Source of the DNA: a virus
Taxonomy: Duplodnaviria; Heunggongvirae; Uroviricota; Caudoviricetes
Strand: one strand, 5' to 3'
DNA length: 35,452 nt
IMG/VR virus record: IMGVR_UViG_2563366975_000004
The notes beneath the pieces are model-generated. The model was not told where the DNA came from. It did no database searches and saw only the letters and a program-made list of their open reading frames with translations. Below, in pieces: positions 1,422-31,518 of the stretch; the stretch's first letter is position 1; each line of letters starts with the position of its first letter. The position numbers and the translations under genes are program-made.

Positions 1422-3893
1422 TTAAAAATCAGCCTGATTTGGGATCAGTTTTTGCCAGATAGCTGAAACGTATTTTGCCTGGTAACGGGCGTCATCAAGT
1501 GCATTATGGCGCTCACCTTCGAATGGAATAGCCGTTCTGGCATCGAAGTCTATGGCTTTCCCCAGCTCAACGATTGTGCGTACATCGCGATCGTTGTAGT
1601 AACGCCACGGGCAGGGGATCCCCTGCCGTTCGTATGAACGGCGCAAAATCGTGTTGTCGAAGTTGGCTCCATTTCCCCAAACCTGAACAAAAAATTCACC
1701 GGAGTTTTCGTCGATAAATTCCCGCAATTGTAACAGTGCATCATCTAACGGGATTTCATCGGTCATAATGGCAGATTGCGCTTCGCGTGATTGCTTAAGC
1801 CACCATTTAATGGTGTCCCGATCAATGACTCCGCCAGCAGTTTCCAGATCGATAGTCTTACTAAATTCCGGTCCCATATCTCCGGTTTGCGGATCGAAAA
1901 ATATTGCACCTATTGAGATGATCGGGGCATCAGGATTTTTTCCCATGGTTTCAAGGTCGATCATTAGATGGTCACACGTCCTGCTGGTGGATGTGATAAC
2001 GTGATGACCGTTCACCGTAATTAAGGGATCTGCCGTCTCGCCAGTTTCACTATCGCTGGCGTGGTCCTGAGCGCTGCCAGCATTCTCCTTGTGTGGATGT
2101 TCAGCGCCTTCCATTTTCTCCGAATCGTCTTCCTGAACTTCAACCTGGTTCTTGTCATCGAATGTTTCCTGGTATGTTGCGTCGCCCATCACCGCACCAC
2201 ATTCAGGGCAGTTGCCGCCGCCGGTCTGACCGTAGGCGGTGCAGATTTTTTCCGCTTCCTGTTGCGCTACTGGCTCAGGTTGTTTCGTTTCTGGCTCGTT
2301 TTGTAACGCATTTGGGCTGTTTTGTTCCGCTTTCTGGTCGTTCTGTTCCGTTTCTTGCTGGTTCTGGTTCACAGAATCGCGGGTCTGGTTCCCCTTAACC
2401 CATTTCGGATCATTCGGGTCGCTAATCCCTTCAACAAATTCACCACGTGATACAGCAAGCAACTGATCGGCGTCAGGCTGGCTGATATTGGCTGCCTGCA
2501 TAATTTTGTTTACTTCGTCAGCGGTAACTTTTACTGACCCTGGTTGTGCGGTCGTGTCAGATGCACCAGTATTTTGTTGTGAACCTGAGTATGTACCGTT
2601 TTTGCGGGCGAAATATTCTTCTTTCGTGATTTCAGTAGCCCCAGCAGACAGCGCCTTATCCAGACCAGAAAGTTTGTTTGCGCGACCGTATTTTTCGCCA
2701 TCCTTGTCGGTGAAGAGGAAGTAGAACGGCCCCTCACGCTCTACAGATGGTTCGACTTCCACTTTGCATTCAGTTTTTTCGTTGCCCGGAATTGCCGTTT
2801 CCACTGCATCAGTTTCTGGTACTGGCGACGAGAGAGTATCAGTTGCGCTCTGATTTGTTCCTTCATCTTCAAACACGCCCTTTGTAGTCAGGTATTCAGT
2901 AATGTATTTGTTCAGTGCCACAGGGTCTTTGTGAATGTCGATCGGACGTTCACGGACAAGGCCAAAAATAGTCTGGCGGTCGTAGCGAAGGGCATCAGGC
3001 TGTTTGCGCATTGATGCCGAGATACGCTTCCAGTCTTCGCGGTCGTTGTCGATAACTTCATTTTTTGCCCAGCGATGGATGCTGCCGTCAATGTTTCCGG
3101 CATCCACATCACCAGGCCAGAGAGCGTAGGCCAGTTCGTCATCCAGTGTTTTCCATGTCTGCTTGTATTCGCGATGAATGGCAGCAATGACCGGGTTGAT
3201 TTTTCCTGTTGAATTTTCAGTGTGCTGTTGATTGGCTCTGGCGCGGGCGAGATCAACAACAGACGTGTATTTTCCGGCTTCCTTGCGTTCACCTTCGCGA
3301 CGTTTTTTCCAGATGCGCATCTCTGCCTGAATTTCGGGCCATTTGGCACCAGGCTTACATTTATGCTTAACCCACCCGATGGCATGCAGCTTAAGCTCCG
3401 GATACATGGCGTTAACTTCTGGCATTTTCATCAACGCTTCAACGATATGTCCGTCGAATGTTGCCATGTCTTCCTGCAACAGTTCCTGCGCGCTAATCAC
3501 CATATCAACGGTGATGTTTTCACATGTGTCGAACTTAACCATGACAGCGTTCTGTACTTCAGGGGCCAGCTTGTCAAAAGTGACGTTCATCGGATCTGAT
3601 TCAGTCTCAACCGGGACAAAGGAAGCAGACGCCTCATCCCAGCGGTTTTCCTGCATATATTCAGCATCCCAGGAATCTAGGGCAGGGCGGGGTATACCGG
3701 GTTTATCCTCGCAGACAAGAAATTTATAAGCGCAGTCCTGAGCAGCCGGATAATGTTCCAGGAATTGCCAGTGAAATTTTGCGCGGGCGCGACGTTCATC
3801 ACCGGCTTCAATGGCAGTGGCTACAGCGACGGCACCTTCTTCCTTTATTGCCTGTTCGTCCGGAATGGCGGCGCAAATAAAGACTTTACTCAT
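1422..3893 (-). CDS. Phage exonuclease with C-terminal DnaQ-like (DEDD) 3'-5' exonuclease domain (823 aa)
   Basis: Long ORF; C-terminus contains MIDLETMG...GNGANFD...HNALDDA motifs resembling DEDDh exonucleases; long acidic low-complexity linker; early-left position next to xis/int. Confidence 0.65.
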   Translation of the reverse strand: MSKVFICAAIPDEQAIKEEGAVAVATAIEAGDERRARAKFHWQFLEHYPAAQDCAYKFLVCEDKPGIPRPALDSWDAEYMQENRWDEASASFVPVETESDPMNVTFDKLAPEVQNAVMVKFDTCENITVDMVISAQELLQEDMATFDGHIVEALMKMPEVNAMYPELKLHAIGWVKHKCKPGAKWPEIQAEMRIWKKRREGERKEAGKYTSVVDLARARANQQHTENSTGKINPVIAAIHREYKQTWKTLDDELAYALWPGDVDAGNIDGSIHRWAKNEVIDNDREDWKRISASMRKQPDALRYDRQTIFGLVRERPIDIHKDPVALNKYITEYLTTKGVFEDEGTNQSATDTLSSPVPETDAVETAIPGNEKTECKVEVEPSVEREGPFYFLFTDKDGEKYGRANKLSGLDKALSAGATEITKEEYFARKNGTYSGSQQNTGASDTTAQPGSVKVTADEVNKIMQAANISQPDADQLLAVSRGEFVEGISDPNDPKWVKGNQTRDSVNQNQQETEQNDQKAEQNSPNALQNEPETKQPEPVAQQEAEKICTAYGQTGGGNCPECGAVMGDATYQETFDDKNQVEVQEDDSEKMEGAEHPHKENAGSAQDHASDSETGETADPLITVNGHHVITSTSRTCDHLMIDLETMGKNPDAPIISIGAIFFDPQTGDMGPEFSKTIDLETAGGVIDRDTIKWWLKQSREAQSAIMTDEIPLDDALLQLREFIDENSGEFFVQVWGNGANFDNTILRRSYERQGIPCPWRYYNDRDVRTIVELGKAIDFDARTAIPFEGERHNALDDARYQAKYVSAIWQKLIPNQADF

Positions 3894-3972
3894 TTTGTTT
3901 TACCTCATTACAGATTTAAGGGTGAACAAATCCCTGCCATTGCTGGCATATAAAAATGAAACTGGATATTAA

Positions 3973-4182
3973 TTACGGCGCTGTTTTTAATCCTGCCGGG
4001 ATTTCGTTATTGTCCATGTGAATAACTTTATCGACCGGATAACAGTTGCCGGGAATTTTCTGTTCCGCTGCGGCAGCCATGCATTCTTTCATTGAGTTGT
4101 ACATGCCGGTGATTGCATCAAGCGACTCACCAGTATTGAGATGTACAGTCAAAATGAGTACGAATAATGTGTTCATCGCCAC
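3973..4182 (-). CDS. Small membrane/secreted protein, YdfD-like by position (69 aa)
   Basis: N-terminal hydrophobic segment MAMNTLFVLILTVHL; lies immediately downstream of the dicB-like gene as ydfD does in Qin. Confidence 0.45.
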   Translation of the reverse strand: MAMNTLFVLILTVHLNTGESLDAITGMYNSMKECMAAAAEQKIPGNCYPVDKVIHMDNNEIPAGLKTAP

Positions 4183-4361
4183 TCTCCGAAAATACCGAGT
4201 TTAAGAAGGGCAATTCTGGAGAGTATGGAATTGTCATTCAGCAGGTAGGGTTCATATTTTCTCATATTGATTGCATCCTCGGTGAAATCCCTGTTACTGA
4301 GCAGAACACCAATATTAAAGCACCCGTCAGACGTATTAACGTTTGGTAGTGACGTTTCCAT
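4173..4361 (-). CDS. dicB: Cell-division inhibitor DicB-like protein (62 aa)
   Basis: 62-aa product with recalled DicB-like motifs (LPNVNTS.GCF.IGV..SN..FTEDAIN.RK); located downstream of a DicF sRNA in the same orientation. Confidence 0.7.
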   Translation of the reverse strand: METSLPNVNTSDGCFNIGVLLSNRDFTEDAINMRKYEPYLLNDNSILSRIALLKLGIFGEWR

Positions 4362-4371
4362 TATCGCGTCC

Positions 4372-4929
4372 TCAACAATGAATTTTTAGCAATTGCTCCA
4401 CAGTCATATTTTTAATTGCGCTCCGGTTTACAAGAGTCCATCCTTGTTTCTCCAGATAAAACCGGAAGGTATCCAGGGTGCAGACCATTGCGTCGTCAGG
4501 AACGGTTTCAGTGAATTTGATATTGCCGTGTTCGTCGAGACGGATAACCAGGGTGCGTCCGTCCCCGTGAATCATTTTGTCGGGAGACGGGGCGTTATTC
4601 TGGCGCAGTTCTGCTTCCATGCGGTCGAACTCAGCAATGTATGCCTCTTTAAATGCAGCGGCTTTTTTGCCAGTGAAGCCCATCACCAGGAAAACGAAGC
4701 CGTTTTTGGTGATTTGGTACATTGGGAGTTTGCGCCCGGTTGAGTCGGTGTATTCGCTTGACACAAAATTGTGCTCAGTGAATTTTGCTGAACAGTCCAG
4801 ATTGCGAATTTTATCCAACACTCGTTCGTGGCGTTTGCCAAAGAACTCGGCGATCGCAACAGACGTAGTGACAGCGCGACCATTTTCGATGGTTACGTCA
4901 GGGTGAGAAAGGGTAAGGATAGTAGCCAT
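4372..4929 (-). CDS. Phage regulatory protein Rha family (about 186 aa, start at internal ATG)
   Basis: Rha-domain motif VTTSVAIAEFFGKRHERVLDKIRNL near N-terminus; GGAGG 8 nt upstream of the ATG at 4929; the 284-aa track ORF extends upstream across an intrinsic terminator so I prefer the internal start. Confidence 0.6.
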   Translation of the reverse strand: MATILTLSHPDVTIENGRAVTTSVAIAEFFGKRHERVLDKIRNLDCSAKFTEHNFVSSEYTDSTGRKLPMYQITKNGFVFLVMGFTGKKAAAFKEAYIAEFDRMEAELRQNNAPSPDKMIHGDGRTLVIRLDEHGNIKFTETVPDDAMVCTLDTFRFYLEKQGWTLVNRSAIKNMTVEQLLKIHC

Positions 4930-6932: not shown

Positions 6933-7117
6933 GCTGACCTCATTTCCCCTTAACGCCGGGGTAGCGGAACTAAAAAACTGCTGCGCTGTTATATAAAGTG
7001 TTCCCGCCGTCATGTTCATACGCCTCGGGCTGGCTACTTAACCCCTGACCACTGCCGGGTAACTCGAAGTATTGCCTGGCGTTCTGTGGGGCGGGGTGGG
7101 TTGGTATGAAAAGAAGG

Positions 7118-7155
7118 ATACCCATAGGTATTTAAAAAGTAAATACCCATGGGTA
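7118..7155. promoter_or_regulatory. Left-operator-like palindromic sites (2 copies) beside the repressor gene
   Basis: ATACCCATAGGTAT and the perfect palindrome TACCCATGGGTA; share ACC-N-GGTA half-sites with the three sites between repressor and cro-like genes. Confidence 0.45.
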
Positions 7156-7197
7156 AATTTTTGCGGTGTCTTAACTGGTGACTAGTTGTTTGGTGAG

Positions 7198-7617
7198 CTA
7201 TGATGCGTTTTGTGCTTTCTTTTTACGGATTTCTTCGTAGATCATATTGTAATACTGTTTTTTCTCTTCAAGAGTTTTTAATAATTTATCCGCTTCACTT
7301 TCTGGCAGTTCGTCTAAGAGATCTAAAAAAATACGTTGTCGTGGCGTTAGAACCCTTGTTTCATAACTGGAGGCTGTGTTCGTTGATGATGAAACGATAC
7401 CATCCATCCATCCCCGGGGTAACCCAAAGGACTCTTCGATAATCTCCACCATATCATCAGCGATCCGTTTTTTTCCCTTTTTCCCCTCTGGGTACAACAT
7501 TCTTGATACATAAGAAGGCTCGCGCCCGATCTTTCTGGCCACGTTAACCGCTTTACCATCGCATTTCTCATCACGAATTTTGATGAGTTGCTGTCGTCTA
7601 AATTCATATTTGTCCAT
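7198..7617 (-). CDS. Prophage immunity repressor (CI/DicA functional analogue), HTH protein (139 aa)
   Basis: HTH-like segment GKAVNVARKIGREPSYVSRM; divergent from a Cro-like gene with repeated operator sites in the intergenic region. Confidence 0.7.
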   Translation of the reverse strand: MDKYEFRRQQLIKIRDEKCDGKAVNVARKIGREPSYVSRMLYPEGKKGKKRIADDMVEIIEESFGLPRGWMDGIVSSSTNTASSYETRVLTPRQRIFLDLLDELPESEADKLLKTLEEKKQYYNMIYEEIRKKKAQNAS

Positions 7618-7637
7618 AGGTAAATAATAGATGCGAT

Positions 7638-7689
7638 TACCGCAAGGTAAACAACCTGTGGGTATTGACTTTTGTTTACCTGTGGGTAT
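7638..7689. promoter_or_regulatory. Right-operator region: three sites with ACC-N4-GGTA(T) symmetry between repressor and cro-like gene
   Basis: TACCGCAAGGTA (7638..7649), ACCTGTGGGTAT (7654..7665), TACCTGTGGGTAT (7677..7689); followed by AAGGAG RBS and ATG at 7718. Confidence 0.55.
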
Positions 7690-7717
7690 TCTTTGCTGTG
7701 TTTACTAAGGAGTAGCT

Positions 7718-7999
7718 ATGGAAGAATTAAGAATATTTCTCAATTCTCTTTCGTCAGATGAACAGCGTATGTTTGCATGCGAGTGTGGTACCAGCATCGG
7801 TTATCTAAGAAAGGCATTGAGTAAAGGTCAAGTGTTAGGGGCATCGTTATGTGTCCTTATTGAGCGAGCCAGTAATGGTGAAGTTACACGTCAGCAACTA
7901 AGGCCTTTTGATTGGATGAATATTTGGCCCGAGCTGGAAGATACCAAAACGTTAACACAACCACTTTCTAGGAGCTTGATTCATGAAAATCAAGCATGA
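7718..7999 (+). CDS. Cro-like / YdaS-family HTH regulator (93 aa)
   Basis: First gene of rightward operon; HTH-like GTSIGYLRKALSKGQ; resembles YdaS-type Cro analogues of Rac-like prophages. Confidence 0.6.
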   Translation: MEELRIFLNSLSSDEQRMFACECGTSIGYLRKALSKGQVLGASLCVLIERASNGEVTRQQLRPFDWMNIWPELEDTKTLTQPLSRSLIHENQA

Positions 8000-8408
8000 A
8001 CACATCCGCATGGCGATGAATGTCTGGGCGCATCCGGACGGCGAAAAAGTGCCGGCTGCGAAAATTACCAAAGCGTATTTCGAGCTGGGAATGACGTTCC
8101 CGGAACTGTATGACGACAGCCATCCGGAAGCCCTGGCCCGTAATACCCAGAAAATTTTCCGTTGGCTGGATAAAGACACCCCTGATGCTGTTGAAAAAAT
8201 GCAGGCTCTGTTACCGGCGATCGAAAAGGCGATGCCGCCTTTGCTGGTGGCCCGTATGCGCAGCCACAGTTCTGAATATTACCGTGAGATCGTCGAACGG
8301 AGGGATCGGCTGGTGAAGGATGTCGATGATTTTGTTGCGTCAGCGGTTGTTTTGTATGACCAGATGAATCGCGGCGGCCCGGCAGGGAATGCTGTGGTGA
8401 TGCACTAA
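7983..8408 (+). CDS. YdaT-like protein (CII-position regulator), 141 aa
   Basis: Follows and overlaps the YdaS-like gene as ydaS-ydaT pairs do; size about 140 aa. Confidence 0.5.
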   Translation: MKIKHEHIRMAMNVWAHPDGEKVPAAKITKAYFELGMTFPELYDDSHPEALARNTQKIFRWLDKDTPDAVEKMQALLPAIEKAMPPLLVARMRSHSSEYYREIVERRDRLVKDVDDFVASAVVLYDQMNRGGPAGNAVVMH

Positions 8409-8415
8409 AAGCACG

Positions 8416-9393
8416 GTGTTCGGGGGTTTTATGAGCAGCAAGCTTCATGGTCTTGTCTGGGAAGGGTGCGCCTTCACCGGCATGATCTTATCCAGGGTGG
8501 CGGTTATGGCCCGTCTTGCAGACTACAGCAATGACGAGGGCGTGTCATGGCCTGCCATTGAAACTATCCGGCGTCAGATCGGTGCAAGAAGTGAATCCAC
8601 AGTGAAATCGGCTATTGCAGAACTGGCGAAAGAGGGCTGGCTGACGAAGGAAGAGCGTAAGGTCGGTGGGCGTAATGTAAGCAATATCTATCGGCTTAAT
8701 GTGGAAAAACTCGAAGCAGCTGCGGCGGCGGCGCGTGAGTCATATAAACCGAAAAGAAAAATTAGCCCGGCAAAAAATGACCCGTTAACAGTTGACCCGT
8801 CAAATATTGACCCCTCAACGGTTGACCCGTCAAATTTTGATGGATCAACTGTTGATAAAAAACTGCCGATTAGGGGGCCGATGATTGACCCCGATCCGTC
8901 AGTATTAAAACCTGATCCGTCAGATAAAAGATCTTCTTGTCCGGACGCTTCGCAACCGGACCCGCAGACGGCTGAACAGGATTTTTTAACCCGACACCCT
9001 GACGCGGTTGTGTTCAGTGCGAAAAAACGCCAGTGGGGAAGTCAGGAAGATTTGGTGTGCGCACAGTGGATCTGGGGACGAATCGTGAGTCTTTACGAGC
9101 AGGCGGCCAGCTATGATGGCGAGATCACTAGACCGAAAGAACCCAACTGGACAGCATGGGCCAATGACGTTCGCACAATGCGGATGCTGGATGGCAGAAC
9201 TCACAGACAAATTTGTGAAATGTTTGGGCGTCTCCAGCGGGATTCGTTCTGGGTAAAAAACATCATGAGTCCGGCAAAACTCCGGGAAAAATGGGATGAA
9301 CTGGTTATCCGCCTGGGGCGTTCGCCTGCGCAGCGTTGCGTGAATCACATTTCTGAACCGGACACTGAAATTCCGCCGGGCTTCAGGGGGTAA
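8416..9393 (+). CDS. Replication initiation protein (O-like) with N-terminal winged-helix domain (325 aa)
   Basis: Position after cro/cII analogues; N-terminal wHTH-like region; internal direct DNA repeats (iterons) encoding DPxTVDPSN repeats. Confidence 0.6.
   Translation: MFGGFMSSKLHGLVWEGCAFTGMILSRVAVMARLADYSNDEGVSWPAIETIRRQIGARSESTVKSAIAELAKEGWLTKEERKVGGRNVSNIYRLNVEKLEAAAAAARESYKPKRKISPAKNDPLTVDPSNIDPSTVDPSNFDGSTVDKKLPIRGPMIDPDPSVLKPDPSDKRSSCPDASQPDPQTAEQDFLTRHPDAVVFSAKKRQWGSQEDLVCAQWIWGRIVSLYEQAASYDGEITRPKEPNWTAWANDVRTMRMLDGRTHRQICEMFGRLQRDSFWVKNIMSPAKLREKWDELVIRLGRSPAQRCVNHISEPDTEIPPGFRG
8777..8852. repeat. Putative origin iterons: about 5 direct repeats of TGACCCGTCAA at roughly 15-bp periodicity
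   Basis: tgacccgtt / tgacccgtc / tgacccctc / tgacccgtc / tgatggatc at 8779, 8793, 8808, 8823, 8838, followed by A-rich tracts; inside the replication gene as in lambda O. Confidence 0.5.
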
Positions 9394-9433
9394 GTGTTAA
9401 TTTCTGGTCATGAGGTAATTTTCAGGAGGGCTT

Positions 9434-9856
9434 GTGGCAAAAGTTTTTACACAAGAAGAGCGGGAAAAAATTAAAGGGCTGATCGTGGAATTCGTACGCC
9501 TTAACGGACGAGGCACGATTCGGCAGTTATCGGATGAAATTGGTGTCAGTCATGCGTCTGTCGGTCGTTTATGCATGGAGCTGGCCGCCAGTGGTGATGT
9601 TTACAATTCCGGTTACGGAGTATTCCCGTCTGAGCAGGCGCGCAAGGACTGGCAAAACGCCCGCAAAAAACTCTCAAGGGCAAAGCTGAAGAAACCATCT
9701 GTGGTTGATCCGGACCTTATCTGGCTATTACCAGACGGCGAAATACGCCGCTACGACAGGCGTCAGAACATAATCTGTCGCGAGTGCCGGAAGAGCGAAG
9801 TTATGCAGCGCATATTGTCGTTTTATCAGGGTAATTTTCAGGAGGTAGCGCAGTGA
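9434..9856 (+). CDS. Hypothetical protein with HTH-like N-terminus (140 aa, GTG start)
   Basis: AGGAGGG RBS before GTG; segment IRQLSDEIGVSHASVGRL resembles an HTH. Confidence 0.45.
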   Translation: MAKVFTQEEREKIKGLIVEFVRLNGRGTIRQLSDEIGVSHASVGRLCMELAASGDVYNSGYGVFPSEQARKDWQNARKKLSRAKLKKPSVVDPDLIWLLPDGEIRRYDRRQNIICRECRKSEVMQRILSFYQGNFQEVAQ

Positions 9857-10347
9857 GTGCACCGGCAACCATTCTTGATATGTGCTGTGGCAGCCGCATG
9901 TTCTGGTTCGATAAGAATGACGACCGGGCGATATTTAGCGATATCAGAAAGGAAGAGCACACATTATGTGATGGACGAAGACTGATAATTAGCCCTGACC
10001 TGATAGCAGATTTTCGTGCATTACCATTTGCAGACGCATCGTTTCCGGTTGTTGTATTCGACCCTCCGCATCTTGAGCGTGTTGGTGATAACGCCTGGAT
10101 GGGAAAGAAATATGGACGGCTGAATAAAGATACCTGGCGTGATGATTTGCGGCAGGGATTTAAAGAAGCCTTTCGTGTGTTGCGGCCATACAGCGTTCTG
10201 ATTTTTAAATGGAATGAAACGCAAATACCTGTTCGCCAGATATTGGCACTGACCGACAGAAAGCCTGTTATCGGTCAACGAACAGGAAAGGGTGACAAGA
10301 CCCACTGGATTATTTTTATGAAGGAGGCGACCAGTGAGCAAGATTGA
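9853..10347 (+). CDS. Small phage DNA N6-adenine methyltransferase, Dam-like (164 aa)
   Basis: SAM-binding-like DMCCGS motif and catalytic-like VVFDPPH (DPPY-type) motif; size typical of small phage Dam proteins. Confidence 0.6.
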   Translation: MSAPATILDMCCGSRMFWFDKNDDRAIFSDIRKEEHTLCDGRRLIISPDLIADFRALPFADASFPVVVFDPPHLERVGDNAWMGKKYGRLNKDTWRDDLRQGFKEAFRVLRPYSVLIFKWNETQIPVRQILALTDRKPVIGQRTGKGDKTHWIIFMKEATSEQD

Positions 10348-10519
10348 CTATCAGGCACTGCGCGAGGCGGCGGAACAGGCAACGCAAGATGAATGGGTAG
10401 CATATATTTTGCCGGGTCATAACGGCATTTATCCTGCGCGCACGTCTGAGGGTAGGCATTGTGCGGATACTTTATTGACTGGCCTGGCGTCTGTCAGGGG
10501 CGGGAGAGCATCAACATGA
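10334..10519 (+). CDS. Ea22-like N-terminal module, short ORF (61 aa)
   Basis: Starts MSKIDYQALREAAEQA, the same N-terminal module as the Ea22-like gene at 10956; short, possibly a truncated mosaic remnant. Confidence 0.35.
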   Translation: MSKIDYQALREAAEQATQDEWVAYILPGHNGIYPARTSEGRHCADTLLTGLASVRGGRAST

Positions 10520-29296: not shown

Positions 29297-29860
29297 GTGC
29301 TGACAACGCAAAAACGAAAATTTGCGCTGGCGCTCATGTCCGGGAAAAACAAAACAGCGTCAGCCATTGCCGCCGGTTATTCGGCGAAGACCGCCAGGGT
29401 TAAAGGCTCGCAGCTGGCAAAAGATCCGGAGGTGCTTGCGTTTATAGCCCGTAAACAATGCGAGACGGTGGAGGTGGATGAGGTTCCTGTTTACCGGCAG
29501 AAAAAATCAGAGCAGGAGGATAAACCCCGTCGCCGTGAGGCGGCTGCAATACCACAGCCGGACGAAAACAATCCGGAGATGCCACCGTCCGCGGTGATGT
29601 CTCCTGGTATTGAATATATGGAGGATGGTCTTCCCGATCCGGTGAAAGCCATGGGGCGGATCCTGGTGGAAAACCTCTGCATTGATCCGAAACTGGCACT
29701 GGATGCGGCCTGGCGTCTGGCGCAGTTCACGCACCATAAAAAAGGGGATACCGGGAAAAAATCGGCAAAAGGTGATGCCGCGAAAAAAGCGGCTAACCGT
29801 TTTGCGGTGCCACCGCCACCCCGACTGGTGGTGAATAACGATAATGAGGGCAACGGATGA
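29297..29860 (+). CDS. Terminase small subunit (187 aa, GTG start)
   Basis: GGGAGGAGG RBS; N-terminal HTH-like region; immediately upstream of large terminase. Confidence 0.7.
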   Translation: MLTTQKRKFALALMSGKNKTASAIAAGYSAKTARVKGSQLAKDPEVLAFIARKQCETVEVDEVPVYRQKKSEQEDKPRRREAAAIPQPDENNPEMPPSAVMSPGIEYMEDGLPDPVKAMGRILVENLCIDPKLALDAAWRLAQFTHHKKGDTGKKSAKGDAAKKAANRFAVPPPPRLVVNNDNEGNG

Positions 29861-31518
29861 TACCTGTATGGAGCACAGCCTGCCCGGACTGGGCAGAGCG
29901 CCTGAAAAAGGGGCTGTCGATTATTCCGGATCCGATTTATCCGGACGAGGCCGCACATGCCCTGGCGATTTTTAAACAACTGCGGATTGTGGATGCACCT
30001 GGTAGCCCTACGTTCGGGGAGTCCTGTGCACCGTGGGTGTTTGACCTGGTGGCGGCCCTGTTTGGCTCCTACGATGCGCAGACCGGTGTACGCCATATCA
30101 AGGAAGTTTTTATCCTTATCCCCAAGAAAAACTCGAAGTCCACGCTGGCCGCGGGGATCATGATGACTGCACTGTTACTGAACTGGCGGCAGGCGGCGGG
30201 TTACACGATTCTGGCCCCGACTGTGGAGGTGGCGGCCAACGCCTTCAACCCTGCCCGGGATATGGTACGACGTGACGATGATCTGGATGATCTCTGCCAG
30301 GTACAGACCCATATCCGGACCATCACCCACCGGGTGACAGACACCACCCTGAAGGTGGTGGCAGCCGATCCGAATACGGTGTCCGGTATCAAGTCCGTGG
30401 GTACGCTGATTGATGAGTTGTGGCTGTTTGGCAAGCAGTGCAAGGCGGAGGACATGTTACGTGAAGCCATAGGCGGCCTTGCCTCCCGCCCGGAAGGGTT
30501 TGTGGTGTATACGACCACCCAGTCGAATGAACCGCCCGCCGGGGTGTTCAGACAGAAACTGCAGTACGCCCGGGATGTGCGCGACGGCAAAATTCATGAT
30601 CCGCACTTTCTGCCGGTGATATTTGAACACCCTCCTGAAATGGTGGAAAGCGGGGCTCACCTGCTGATGGAAAACCTCGCCATGGTCAATCCTAATCTCG
30701 GCTATTCAGTGGATGAGGCCTTTCTGTACCGGGAGTACCGTAAAGCCCGGGAAGCCGGTGAAGAGACATTCCGGGGGTTCATGTCAAAACACGCCAATGT
30801 GGAAATTGGTCTTGCCCTGCGCTCTGACCGCTGGGCGGGGGCTGATTTCTGGGAAGAGCAGGGCCGTTGTATCAGCCTGGACGATATCCTGCGTCGTGCT
30901 GATGTGGTGACGGTGGGGATTGACGGCGGAGGGCTGGATGATCTGCTGGGGATGTATGTGATTGGGCGTGACCGGGAGACCCGCGAATGGCTGGGCTGGG
31001 GCCATGCCTGGGCGCATGAAACCGCGGTGGTCCGACGGAAGAGCGAGGCGTCCCGGTTTCAGGATCTTGTTGCCTGTGGAGATATGACCATTGTCCGGCG
31101 TGTCGGGGATGACACGGCGGAAGTGGCGGAATATGTGCGTCGCATTCATGAGGCTGAGTTACTGGACCATATCGGTATTGACCCGTCAGGGGTGGGGCAG
31201 ATTCTGGATTCACTGGCGGAAGCCGGGATCCCCGACGGAATTGTGGTGGGGATAAGCCAGGGCTGGAAACTGGGCGGGGCCATTAAAACCACCGAGCGCA
31301 AACTGGCTGAAGGGGTGCTGGTGCATGGTGACCAGCCCCTGATGGCCTGGTGTGTCGGCAATGCCCGGGTGGAGCCTAAAGGTAACGCCATTCTTATCAC
31401 CAAACAGGCCAGTGGACGGGGAAAAATTGACCCGCTGATGGCGCTGTTCAATGCGGTCTCCCTGATGTCCCTTAACCCGGAACCGAAAAAGAAAGAATAT
31501 GCGGTTTTTTTCATATAA
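29857..31518 (+). CDS. Terminase large subunit (553 aa)
   Basis: Walker A-like ILIPKKNSKST and acidic nuclease-domain region; size and position typical of TerL. Confidence 0.85.
   Translation: MIPVWSTACPDWAERLKKGLSIIPDPIYPDEAAHALAIFKQLRIVDAPGSPTFGESCAPWVFDLVAALFGSYDAQTGVRHIKEVFILIPKKNSKSTLAAGIMMTALLLNWRQAAGYTILAPTVEVAANAFNPARDMVRRDDDLDDLCQVQTHIRTITHRVTDTTLKVVAADPNTVSGIKSVGTLIDELWLFGKQCKAEDMLREAIGGLASRPEGFVVYTTTQSNEPPAGVFRQKLQYARDVRDGKIHDPHFLPVIFEHPPEMVESGAHLLMENLAMVNPNLGYSVDEAFLYREYRKAREAGEETFRGFMSKHANVEIGLALRSDRWAGADFWEEQGRCISLDDILRRADVVTVGIDGGGLDDLLGMYVIGRDRETREWLGWGHAWAHETAVVRRKSEASRFQDLVACGDMTIVRRVGDDTAEVAEYVRRIHEAELLDHIGIDPSGVGQILDSLAEAGIPDGIVVGISQGWKLGGAIKTTERKLAEGVLVHGDQPLMAWCVGNARVEPKGNAILITKQASGRGKIDPLMALFNAVSLMSLNPEPKKKEYAVFFI

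Follow-up and report, generated by a model that had tools for sequence, protein, structure and literature searches.

A candidate lambda-type replication origin inside the initiator gene of an Escherichia coli lambdoid prophage

The 35,452-bp stretch of DNA analysed here (IMG/VR virus record IMGVR_UViG_2563366975_000004, referred to as a whole as the window) is the left and central part of an Escherichia coli lambdoid prophage and contains, at positions 8431–9393 of the plus strand, a gene for an O-like replication initiator of 320 amino acids. RefSeq places the start of this gene at the ATG at 8431, and the open reading frame (ORF) is open from a GTG at 8416. The gene lies directly after an immunity region that comprises a cI-like gene (7198–7617, minus strand), a cro/YdaS-like gene (7718–7999) and a cII/YdaT-like gene (7983–8408), and it occupies the early-right operon position of a lambda-type initiator gene. 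A putative pR-like promoter of the cro/cII/initiator operon (7665–7692, plus strand; TTGACT-16-TATTCT, nine of 12 consensus positions), recognized by consensus match only, is located ∼1.1 kb upstream of an array of short repeats in the middle of the initiator gene. An initial annotation made from the sequence had identified the gene as a replication initiator and the repeats as a candidate origin inside it, as the lambda origin (ori) lies within gene O. The former proposal is supported by a match to phrog_391 ('replication initiation O-like', E 4e-115), by a Pfam HTH_36 match and by the place of the gene after the cI-, cro- and cII-like genes; the comparative evidence presented below supports the latter.

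The phrog_391 match extends over amino acids 6–325 of the 325-residue ORF, that is, over its full length, and the HTH_36 match lies in the N-terminal domain (amino acids 30–76). A Pfam scan of the initiator (E ≤ 0.01) yielded HTH_36 and a weak DnaD_N match only. The full-length profile match and the same domain order are shared with the PHROG 391/HTH_36 initiators, which are the SfIV-type proteins labelled 'replication protein O' or 'primosomal protein I'. There are 914 homologues of the initiator, and its identity to SfIV gp41 is 63%. RefSeq labels the gene solely as a 'helix-turn-helix domain-containing protein' with no origin feature, and origin annotation is likewise absent from the other records inspected, which include those of SfIV, SfII, phiNP, the Klebsiella phage and 689R6. 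The first 545 nucleotides of the ORF (8416–8960) were found in 1,542 of 5,426 complete E. coli genomes (∼28%), in 1,371 of them at 99% identity or more.

An AlphaFold model of the initiator, built with 50 homologues, divides the protein into two folded domains and a linker. The N-terminal winged-helix DNA-binding domain (amino acids 1–105, encoded by 8431–8745, plus strand; pLDDT 70–87) consists of four helices, a beta hairpin and a fifth helix, and is the presumed reader of the repeats. A Foldseek search of this domain against the PDB gave weak matches only, to winged-helix regulators of the MarR, PadR and ArsR type (best E 4e-3), and no initiator-specific fold. MarR, PadR and ArsR regulators are typically dimers that bind palindromes. 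Residues 107–172 form a predicted disordered linker (pLDDT <50) encoded by nucleotides 8749–8946, which is the repeat and AT-rich region, so that the DNA element coincides with the structurally least constrained part of the protein. The C-terminal helical domain (amino acids 178–297, 8962–9321, plus strand; pLDDT 76–92) is presumed to recruit host replication proteins; PHROGs with the labels 'DnaD-like helicase loader' and 'replisome organizer' match it, and no Pfam family does. It is followed by a C-terminal tail that is disordered in the model.

The array consists of five 12-bp units between 8777 and 8848 with the consensus TTGACCCGTCAA, a TTGA-N4-TCAA palindrome. A weak first unit (ATGACCCGTTAA, 8777–8788) is followed by TTGACCCGTCAA (8792–8803), TTGACCCCTCAA (8807–8818) and a second TTGACCCGTCAA (8822–8833), all on the plus strand, while the fifth unit (TTGATGGATCAA, 8837–8848) has an inverted core, is assigned to the minus strand, where it reads TTGATCCATCAA, and contains a GATC site. 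A degenerate A-run unit (TTGATAAAAAAC, 8852–8863, plus strand) stands in register with the array as a sixth unit, and an A-run unit is present at this place in every relative. The gene carries between the coding regions for its DNA-binding and recruiting domains a tandem dyad-symmetric array of five to six units (8777–8863). Units 2–4 and unit 5 together form a 33-nucleotide imperfect inverted repeat centred on 8820. Tandem Repeats Finder reports periods of 15 bp (5 copies) and 30 bp (2.5–3 copies, 80–84% matches) over 8757–8855, the 30-bp super-period scoring best because the spacers alternate between AACNGT and AAATWT. The five repeats at a spacing of roughly 15 bp described in the initial annotation are thus spaced at exactly 15 bp, and its A-rich tracts and further degenerate copies downstream were also found (TTGACCCC-GATCCGTCAG at 8885–8902 and CTGATCCGTCAG at 8912–8923). 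It was equally right that the repeats lie within coding sequence and specify a repeated DPS(N/T)VD peptide, since the array is in frame with the ORF (8416/8431–9393) and encodes NDPLT VDPSN IDPST VDPSN FDGST VDKKL.

The clustering of the units is far beyond chance expectation. Only seven sites with two or fewer mismatches to TTGACCCGTCAA occur in the window, and five of these are the array; the remaining two, ATGACCCGGCAA on the minus strand at 10409–10420 and TTGACCCGTCAG on the plus strand at 31178–31189, are the number that chance predicts, and there is no second cluster of the motif at this threshold in the 35 kb. Among 300 windows simulated with matching dinucleotide content, none had more than two sites in any 75-bp span, and a Poisson estimate for four more matches within 75 bp of one match is ∼1e-11. 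As a single strand the array has the potential to form a long hairpin (z = −3.7 versus shuffled sequence), and a hairpin or cruciform is possible, as has been reported for the lambda iterons (PMC7466680). Because palindromic half-sites recur every 7–8 bp, the true binding-site register is ambiguous, and either a TTGAC-NN-GTCAA or a GTCAA-NNN-TTGAC dyad could be the bound form. The latter is favoured by an extended palindrome, GGGGTCAA-TGG-TTGACCCC, that relatives carry proximal to their arrays.

The array is embedded in DNA of low duplex stability with a GC content of 0.31–0.34 at 8745–8776, 8834–8869 and 8903–8938. To its left is an A-rich tract (8745–8776; GC 0.34 versus 0.52 for the gene). 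To its right, beyond the A-run unit, a proximal element (TTAGGGGGCCGATGATTGACCCC, 8870–8892) is a decayed copy of the extended palindrome, as judged against five relatives (L006–L010). This is followed by a GATCCGTCAG repeat (8893–8902, plus strand), which combines a half-iteron with a Dam site and is conserved across genera, and by an AT-rich stretch (8903–8938; GC 0.31), the candidate unwinding region, that holds a second GATCCGTCAG repeat (8914–8923) and ATAAAAGATCT (ending at 8934). The three least stable 30-bp stretches of the gene (8736–8765, 8833–8862 and 8903–8932) are all in this segment. GATC sites at 8843, 8893, 8914 and 8930 make it the densest 100 bp of the window for this motif, by just one site over several other places. 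An inverted repeat, GTCCGG-N11-CCGGAC (8939–8961), forms the right edge of the candidate origin and the junction between the origin and C-domain modules. Its counterparts at the same place in relatives include GTCAGGC-N6-GCCTGAC (L011) and TCGTCA-N8-TGACGA (L013), differences that may be compensatory changes, and the loop length varies among the relatives compared (L003–L013), which we record as an observation only. DnaA boxes (TTWTNCACA) are not enriched, with three in the window versus 3.2 expected and the nearest at 8700 and 9445, and no role is therefore claimed for them. On the minus strand, GATCTTTTATCTG (8921–8933) resembles the 13-mer consensus of oriC by eye; this resemblance was not used.

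Relatives of the region were collected by a scan of one genome per species, in which ten loci were found in Erwinia (four species), Mixta, Edwardsiella (two), Citrobacter braakii and two metagenome-assembled genomes (a Symbiopectobacterium and an unclassified proteobacterium), and from a phage collection (SfIV, SfII, phiNP, vB_EcoM-689R6, a Klebsiella phage and HannyBb). A scan of viral contigs returned nearly exclusively near-identical E. coli copies, which are informative on polymorphism and not on divergence. Every member whose N-domain is homologous has its elements in one order, namely a 15-bp-period array, an A-run unit, a proximal palindrome, GATCC repeats and an inverted repeat, and this layout is seen in SfIV, phiNP, Klebsiella phage 1 LV-2017 and prophages of Erwinia, Mixta, Edwardsiella and others. 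Within the unit, YTGAY-NN-RTCAA is conserved throughout the family with a variable centre, in a common codon frame (xTT GAC CCN TCA Axx). The proximal palindrome is GGGGTCAA-TGG-TTGACCCC in the class to which the window belongs and CCGTCAGAATCTGGCGG in the SfIV class. Two or three GATCCRTCAG repeats lie ∼18–24 bp apart in the AT-rich DNA of the relatives.

Several features of these alignments concern the DNA more than the peptide. The units are found in either orientation (TTGACCCC or TTGAGGGG), and a flip changes the encoded peptide from DPS or DPP to EGS or EGL and keeps the palindrome; at least one flipped unit is present in eight of the ten in-register loci of the two classes, and the window also has one. 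Codon conservation was measured as the frequency with which aligned positions encoding the same amino acid also use the same codon. This value is 0.74 in the array and 0.86 in the A-run and GATC box (0.85–0.86 over codons 142–172, which take in the A-run unit, proximal element and GATC box jointly), versus 0.545 in the N-domain and 0.526 in the C-domain, with amino-acid identity of 0.56–0.58 in the origin segment versus 0.67–0.75 in the folded domains. A column-wise Mann–Whitney test of this segment against the domains with six non-redundant sequences gives p = 4e-7; by part, the GATC box gives a strong signal (p = 1e-7) and the array alone a weak one (p = 0.04). TCA accounts for 54 of 88 serine codons within the segment versus 19 of 182 elsewhere in the same genes, a figure that is descriptive because the repeated units are not independent. 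Since the unit is 15 bp or five codons long, units can be gained, lost and inverted in frame. Their number ranges from ∼2 to 12 across the family in 15-bp (five-residue) steps, and E. coli alleles encode initiators of 320, 315, 310 and 305 amino acids, with exact 15-bp deletions; in one allele, 21 bp between the two GATCCGTCAG repeats are deleted. Taken with the joint change of repeats and N-domain described next, the orientation, synonymous-site and copy-number patterns point to selection on the DNA rather than on the peptide.

The sequence of the repeats changes with the DNA-binding domain and independently of the C-domain. HannyBb and mEp460 have a C-domain with 86% nucleotide identity to that of the window from near 8926 and an unrelated N-terminal half, and HannyBb carries at the same position five GGTCAAAATG repeats at ∼23-bp spacing, followed by a different AT-rich stretch. 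Three loci with 50–60% identical N-domains (L013–L015) have palindromes of the CCTCCAGAATCTGGAGG type, and in two of them (L014 and L015) both GATCC repeats read GATCCACAAG. C-domains of at least three types are found attached to the same N-domain and origin module, namely that of the window, Phg_2220_C and a third type (L014 and L015). The sample behind this co-variation is small, with four specificity classes. A modular pattern of this type is known for lambdoid replication regions, where iteron specificity resides in the N-terminal part of the initiator in lambda, P22 and L (PMC8022706).

The architecture of the locus has every testable defining feature of a lambda-type origin inside an initiator gene, and we conclude that the segment 8745–8961 is very probably the vegetative replication origin of this lambdoid prophage, lying within the linker-coding part of its own initiator gene. 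From the comparisons above we infer that the initiator would bind the repeats, that adjacent DNA would unwind and that the origin would fire.

Several observations weigh against this assignment. The N-domain gave no match to the Pfam family of lambda O (Phage_rep_O) in the scan at E ≤ 0.01, and the analogy with lambda is therefore one of architecture and not of close homology. The PHROG label 'O-like' describes function and architecture, and the initiator is a separate HTH_36 lineage that presumably works like lambda O, without a P partner. The phage collection contains no isolated phage with this exact N-domain and iteron type, and the nearest isolated phages, such as SfIV, match the region only in part at 71–75% DNA identity. 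The AT-rich tracts are moderate (GC 0.31–0.34 over ∼35 bp) and less extreme than that described for lambda. The peptide that follows the array (DPSV..DPSDK) is also conserved, so that part of the conservation could act on the protein. Close E. coli copies have point changes inside units, for example from TTGACCCC to TTGCCCCC, and some alleles lack most or all of the array or have 15- or 21-bp deletions (P0103–P0105, P0021, L082, L084, L089 and L094). In view of the point changes and the alleles without an array, many of the copies may be decaying prophages; the deletions and array losses fit recombination between repeats as well as decay in defective prophages.

Some of these same observations are what would be expected if the region were merely slippage-prone, low-complexity coding sequence for a disordered linker of pentapeptide repeats, with no function at the DNA level and with the origin elsewhere or absent. 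The region does encode a predicted disordered linker, its copy number varies as slippage would give, some alleles dispense with the array, and units acquire point changes in close E. coli copies. Against this stand orientation flips that alter the peptide and preserve the DNA palindrome, an excess of synonymous conservation where amino-acid identity is lowest, serine codons that are mostly TCA, a codon that these genes seldom use elsewhere, dyad symmetry in each unit, and repeats that change together with the DNA-binding domain. We consider this explanation unlikely. An alternative that shares the DNA-level function, and to which we give somewhat less credence still, is that the initiator or another phage protein does bind the array, which would then serve in control (autoregulation, titration or handcuffing and incompatibility), with DNA opening and helicase loading elsewhere. 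Arrays of iteron plasmids are copy-number control elements as well, as is generally known and reviewed (PMC4980987), and the extra iterons of Stx phages are bound only weakly (PMC7466680). In the prophage, however, the least stable DNA of the gene directly flanks the array; the conserved AT-rich, GATC-rich box and inverted repeat that follow it complete a lambda-type layout; and the window contains no second motif cluster. The downstream gene differs among relatives (DUF977, YfdN-like or methyltransferase), and no other protein is therefore consistently linked to the array.

A role as RNA, either as a structured messenger RNA element or as a small RNA, would be in keeping with the strand folding better than shuffled sequence (z = −3.7), but this fold follows trivially from the palindromic units, and orientation flips of single units are more readily reconciled with a site in duplex DNA than with a conserved RNA helix. 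A scan of 7000–10500 found no Rfam family, and this reading, which we regard as very improbable, was therefore set aside. A replication origin within the initiator gene remains the explanation that we prefer.

If the segment is such an origin, its use can be envisaged as follows. Derepression of the pR-like promoter would lead to synthesis of the initiator, whose winged-helix N-domain dimers would occupy the palindromic units and half-sites to form a nucleoprotein complex like the O-some of lambda. On supercoiled DNA this complex would strain and open the adjacent AT-rich, GATC-rich stretch (∼8903–8938), and the C-domain and tail, tethered by the ∼65-residue disordered linker that the origin itself encodes, would bring in the host helicase.

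The C-terminal tail offers a lead as to how the helicase might be recruited. This tail (AQRCVNHISEPDTEIPPGFRG, 9328–9390, plus strand) aligns with positions 159–179 of the 179 positions of the NCBIfam DnaT model and matches the C-terminus of host DnaT, with 16 of the last 21 residues identical to those of E. coli DnaT (PDB chains 2ru8_A and 9zbt_D). The last 13 residues of the initiator are SEPDTEIPPGFRG, and the tail pattern is SEPDxxIPPGFRG. The resemblance to DnaT is the probable reason why several phage records carry the label 'primosomal protein I'. A DnaT-like ending, GF[RK]G, is present in 50 of 108 full-length homologues, and other homologues that share this C-domain end in WNxxEGWE[DN][TV]L; the tails thus resemble short interchangeable motifs through which host factors could be recruited. 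No P-, DnaC- or DnaB-type gene lies directly downstream of the initiator gene in the window (9394–10347), SfIV, phiNP, 689R6 or HannyBb, and a host loader is therefore probably used. DnaT is believed to recruit DnaB–DnaC in a manner described as unknown (PMC5778457, PMC13377028), and no partner of the DnaT tail is named in the searched passages of a preprimosome cryo-EM paper and a restart review.

We tentatively suggest, as a possibility that we hold with considerable reserve, that this family of origins fires without a phage helicase loader, the DnaT-like tail enabling the origin-bound initiator to take the place of DnaT and capture DnaB–DnaC or PriA, such that the replication restart machinery would start replication at the phage origin. 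Two observations agree with this suggestion: a sister prophage has a DnaC-like gene directly after the same initiator, and loci that differ in iteron specificity nevertheless conserve the AT-rich, GATC-rich box, which could therefore be a common loading site. The link to the DnaT tail is a lead and not a finding.

The sister element in question (L096, NZ_CP148542.1) encodes at 1660–4620 the same initiator followed by a DnaC/IstB-like ATPase, DUF1627 and DUF977, and the order of the initiator and DnaC/IstB-like genes mirrors that of the host dnaT–dnaC operon. It is a circular sequence of 15,977 bp that was deposited as a plasmid and comprises only the immunity-to-lysis segment of a prophage, with an initiator and origin region 98.4% identical to those of the window. 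It has no typed plasmid replicon, both its ydaT-like gene and its initiator gene contain frameshifts, and the sequence derives from a single-cell sample. The element may be a natural replicon resembling lambda-dv or an assembly artefact, and it was not counted as evidence.

The remaining genes of the window are arranged as follows. Genes for an integrase and an exonuclease, both on the minus strand, come first, before the immunity region; the initiator gene is followed by a DUF977 gene (9434–9856) and a methyltransferase gene, and then by nin-type genes, a Q antiterminator gene, lysis genes, and terminase and portal genes, in that order. Two further repeats were noted. A 21-bp tandem repeat in four copies (2280–2363; consensus TTGTTCCGCTTTCTGGCTCGTT, 71% matches) lies inside the gene for the 823-residue exonuclease (1422–3893, minus strand). 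A 27-bp direct repeat in two copies (29740–29793; AAAAGGGGATACCGCGAAAAAAGCGGC, 85% matches) is situated at the end of a 187-residue ORF (29297–29860) and just upstream of a 553-residue ORF starting at 29857, which is a putative large terminase by position alone, and could be a feature of a packaging site.

Genome papers on lambdoid phages routinely infer origins from short repeats within O-like genes, for example that on phage L (PMC8022706). Full-text literature searches on the repeat sequences and on iterons of SfIV-type phages gave no description of this repeat family, and general precedent only (PMC8022706, PMC7466680, PMC6022878). The arrangement is ordinary within a family that has lacked an annotated origin; it would not surprise a specialist, and it leaves the understanding of such origins unchanged. 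Its recognition nonetheless provides an annotation rule for the replication modules of a large family of prophages with relatives across Enterobacterales, allows replication specificity and incompatibility types to be predicted from the repeat sequence, and defines a small fragment that is testable as a lambda-dv-like replicon. It also supplies a clear example of a DNA element overlapping a coding region, in which a frame-neutral 15-bp unit tolerates gain, loss and inversion.

Among the closest known parallels is ori of lambda, with its variants in the Stx phages 933W and P27, which is likewise situated in the middle of the initiator gene, downstream of pR, cro and cII, and consists of an array of imperfect inverted repeats followed by an AT-rich stretch. 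In lambda O a flexible linker joins the DNA-binding and P-binding domains, with ori mid-gene (PMC6022878, PMC7466680), and the prophage initiator has the same order of N-terminal DNA-binding domain, flexible linker and C-terminal recruiting domain. As in the family described here, the number of iterons varies among lambda and Stx phages and changes the length of the protein (PMC7466680, PMC6022878). The iterons of lambda are 18–19 bp long and occur every ∼20 bp, whereas those of the prophage are 12 bp long with a period of 15 bp, number five to six (two to 12 across the family) and are of mixed orientation. The N-domain of the prophage protein matches HTH_36 and not the lambda O family, no P gene follows, and the AT-rich stretch is shorter and less extreme than that of lambda and contains GATC sites and half-iterons.

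Lambda, P22 and phage L each have different iterons inside the initiator gene, and gene 18 of phage L contains six imprecise copies of an 11-bp repeat that represent its inferred origin (PMC8022706). The gene 18 initiators of P22 and phage L are comparable to the prophage case in that distantly related initiators each have their own repeat family in the coding region, and the logic of inference is the same. They differ in the repeat itself, which is TGTCCAACGGA in phage L, and in that a DnaB-type helicase, gp12, adjoins their initiator, whereas neither a helicase nor a loader is found there in the prophage.

Iteron plasmids (F RepE, pPS10 RepA, R6K pi and P1 RepA/oriR) similarly combine a winged-helix initiator with tandem sites beside an AT-rich unwinding element. 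In P1 oriR, GATC sites are present in the unwinding region. The iterons of these plasmids are non-coding, lie beside the rep gene and are ∼19–22 bp long, unlike those of the prophage. No Pfam match of the initiator to Rep families (Rep_3 or WH1–WH2/RepE-type) was obtained, and its Foldseek matches are generic winged-helix regulators only (E > 1e-3). Iteron plasmids require host DnaB and DnaC (PMC4980987). Members of the same protein family include the Shigella phages SfIV and SfII, Citrobacter phage phiNP, Klebsiella phage 1 LV-2017 and E. coli phage vB_EcoM-689R6, which share with the prophage a homologous N-domain, YTGAY-NN-RTCAA units that recur every 15 bp and keep its codon frame, the A-run, the GATCCGTCAG repeats and the GTCCGG..CCGGAC element. 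They are distinguished from it by a spacer of AAAAT in place of the alternating AAATAT and AACGGT of the window, by CCGTCAGAATCTGGCGG as proximal palindrome and, in some members, by a different C-domain, such as Phg_2220_C in phiNP.

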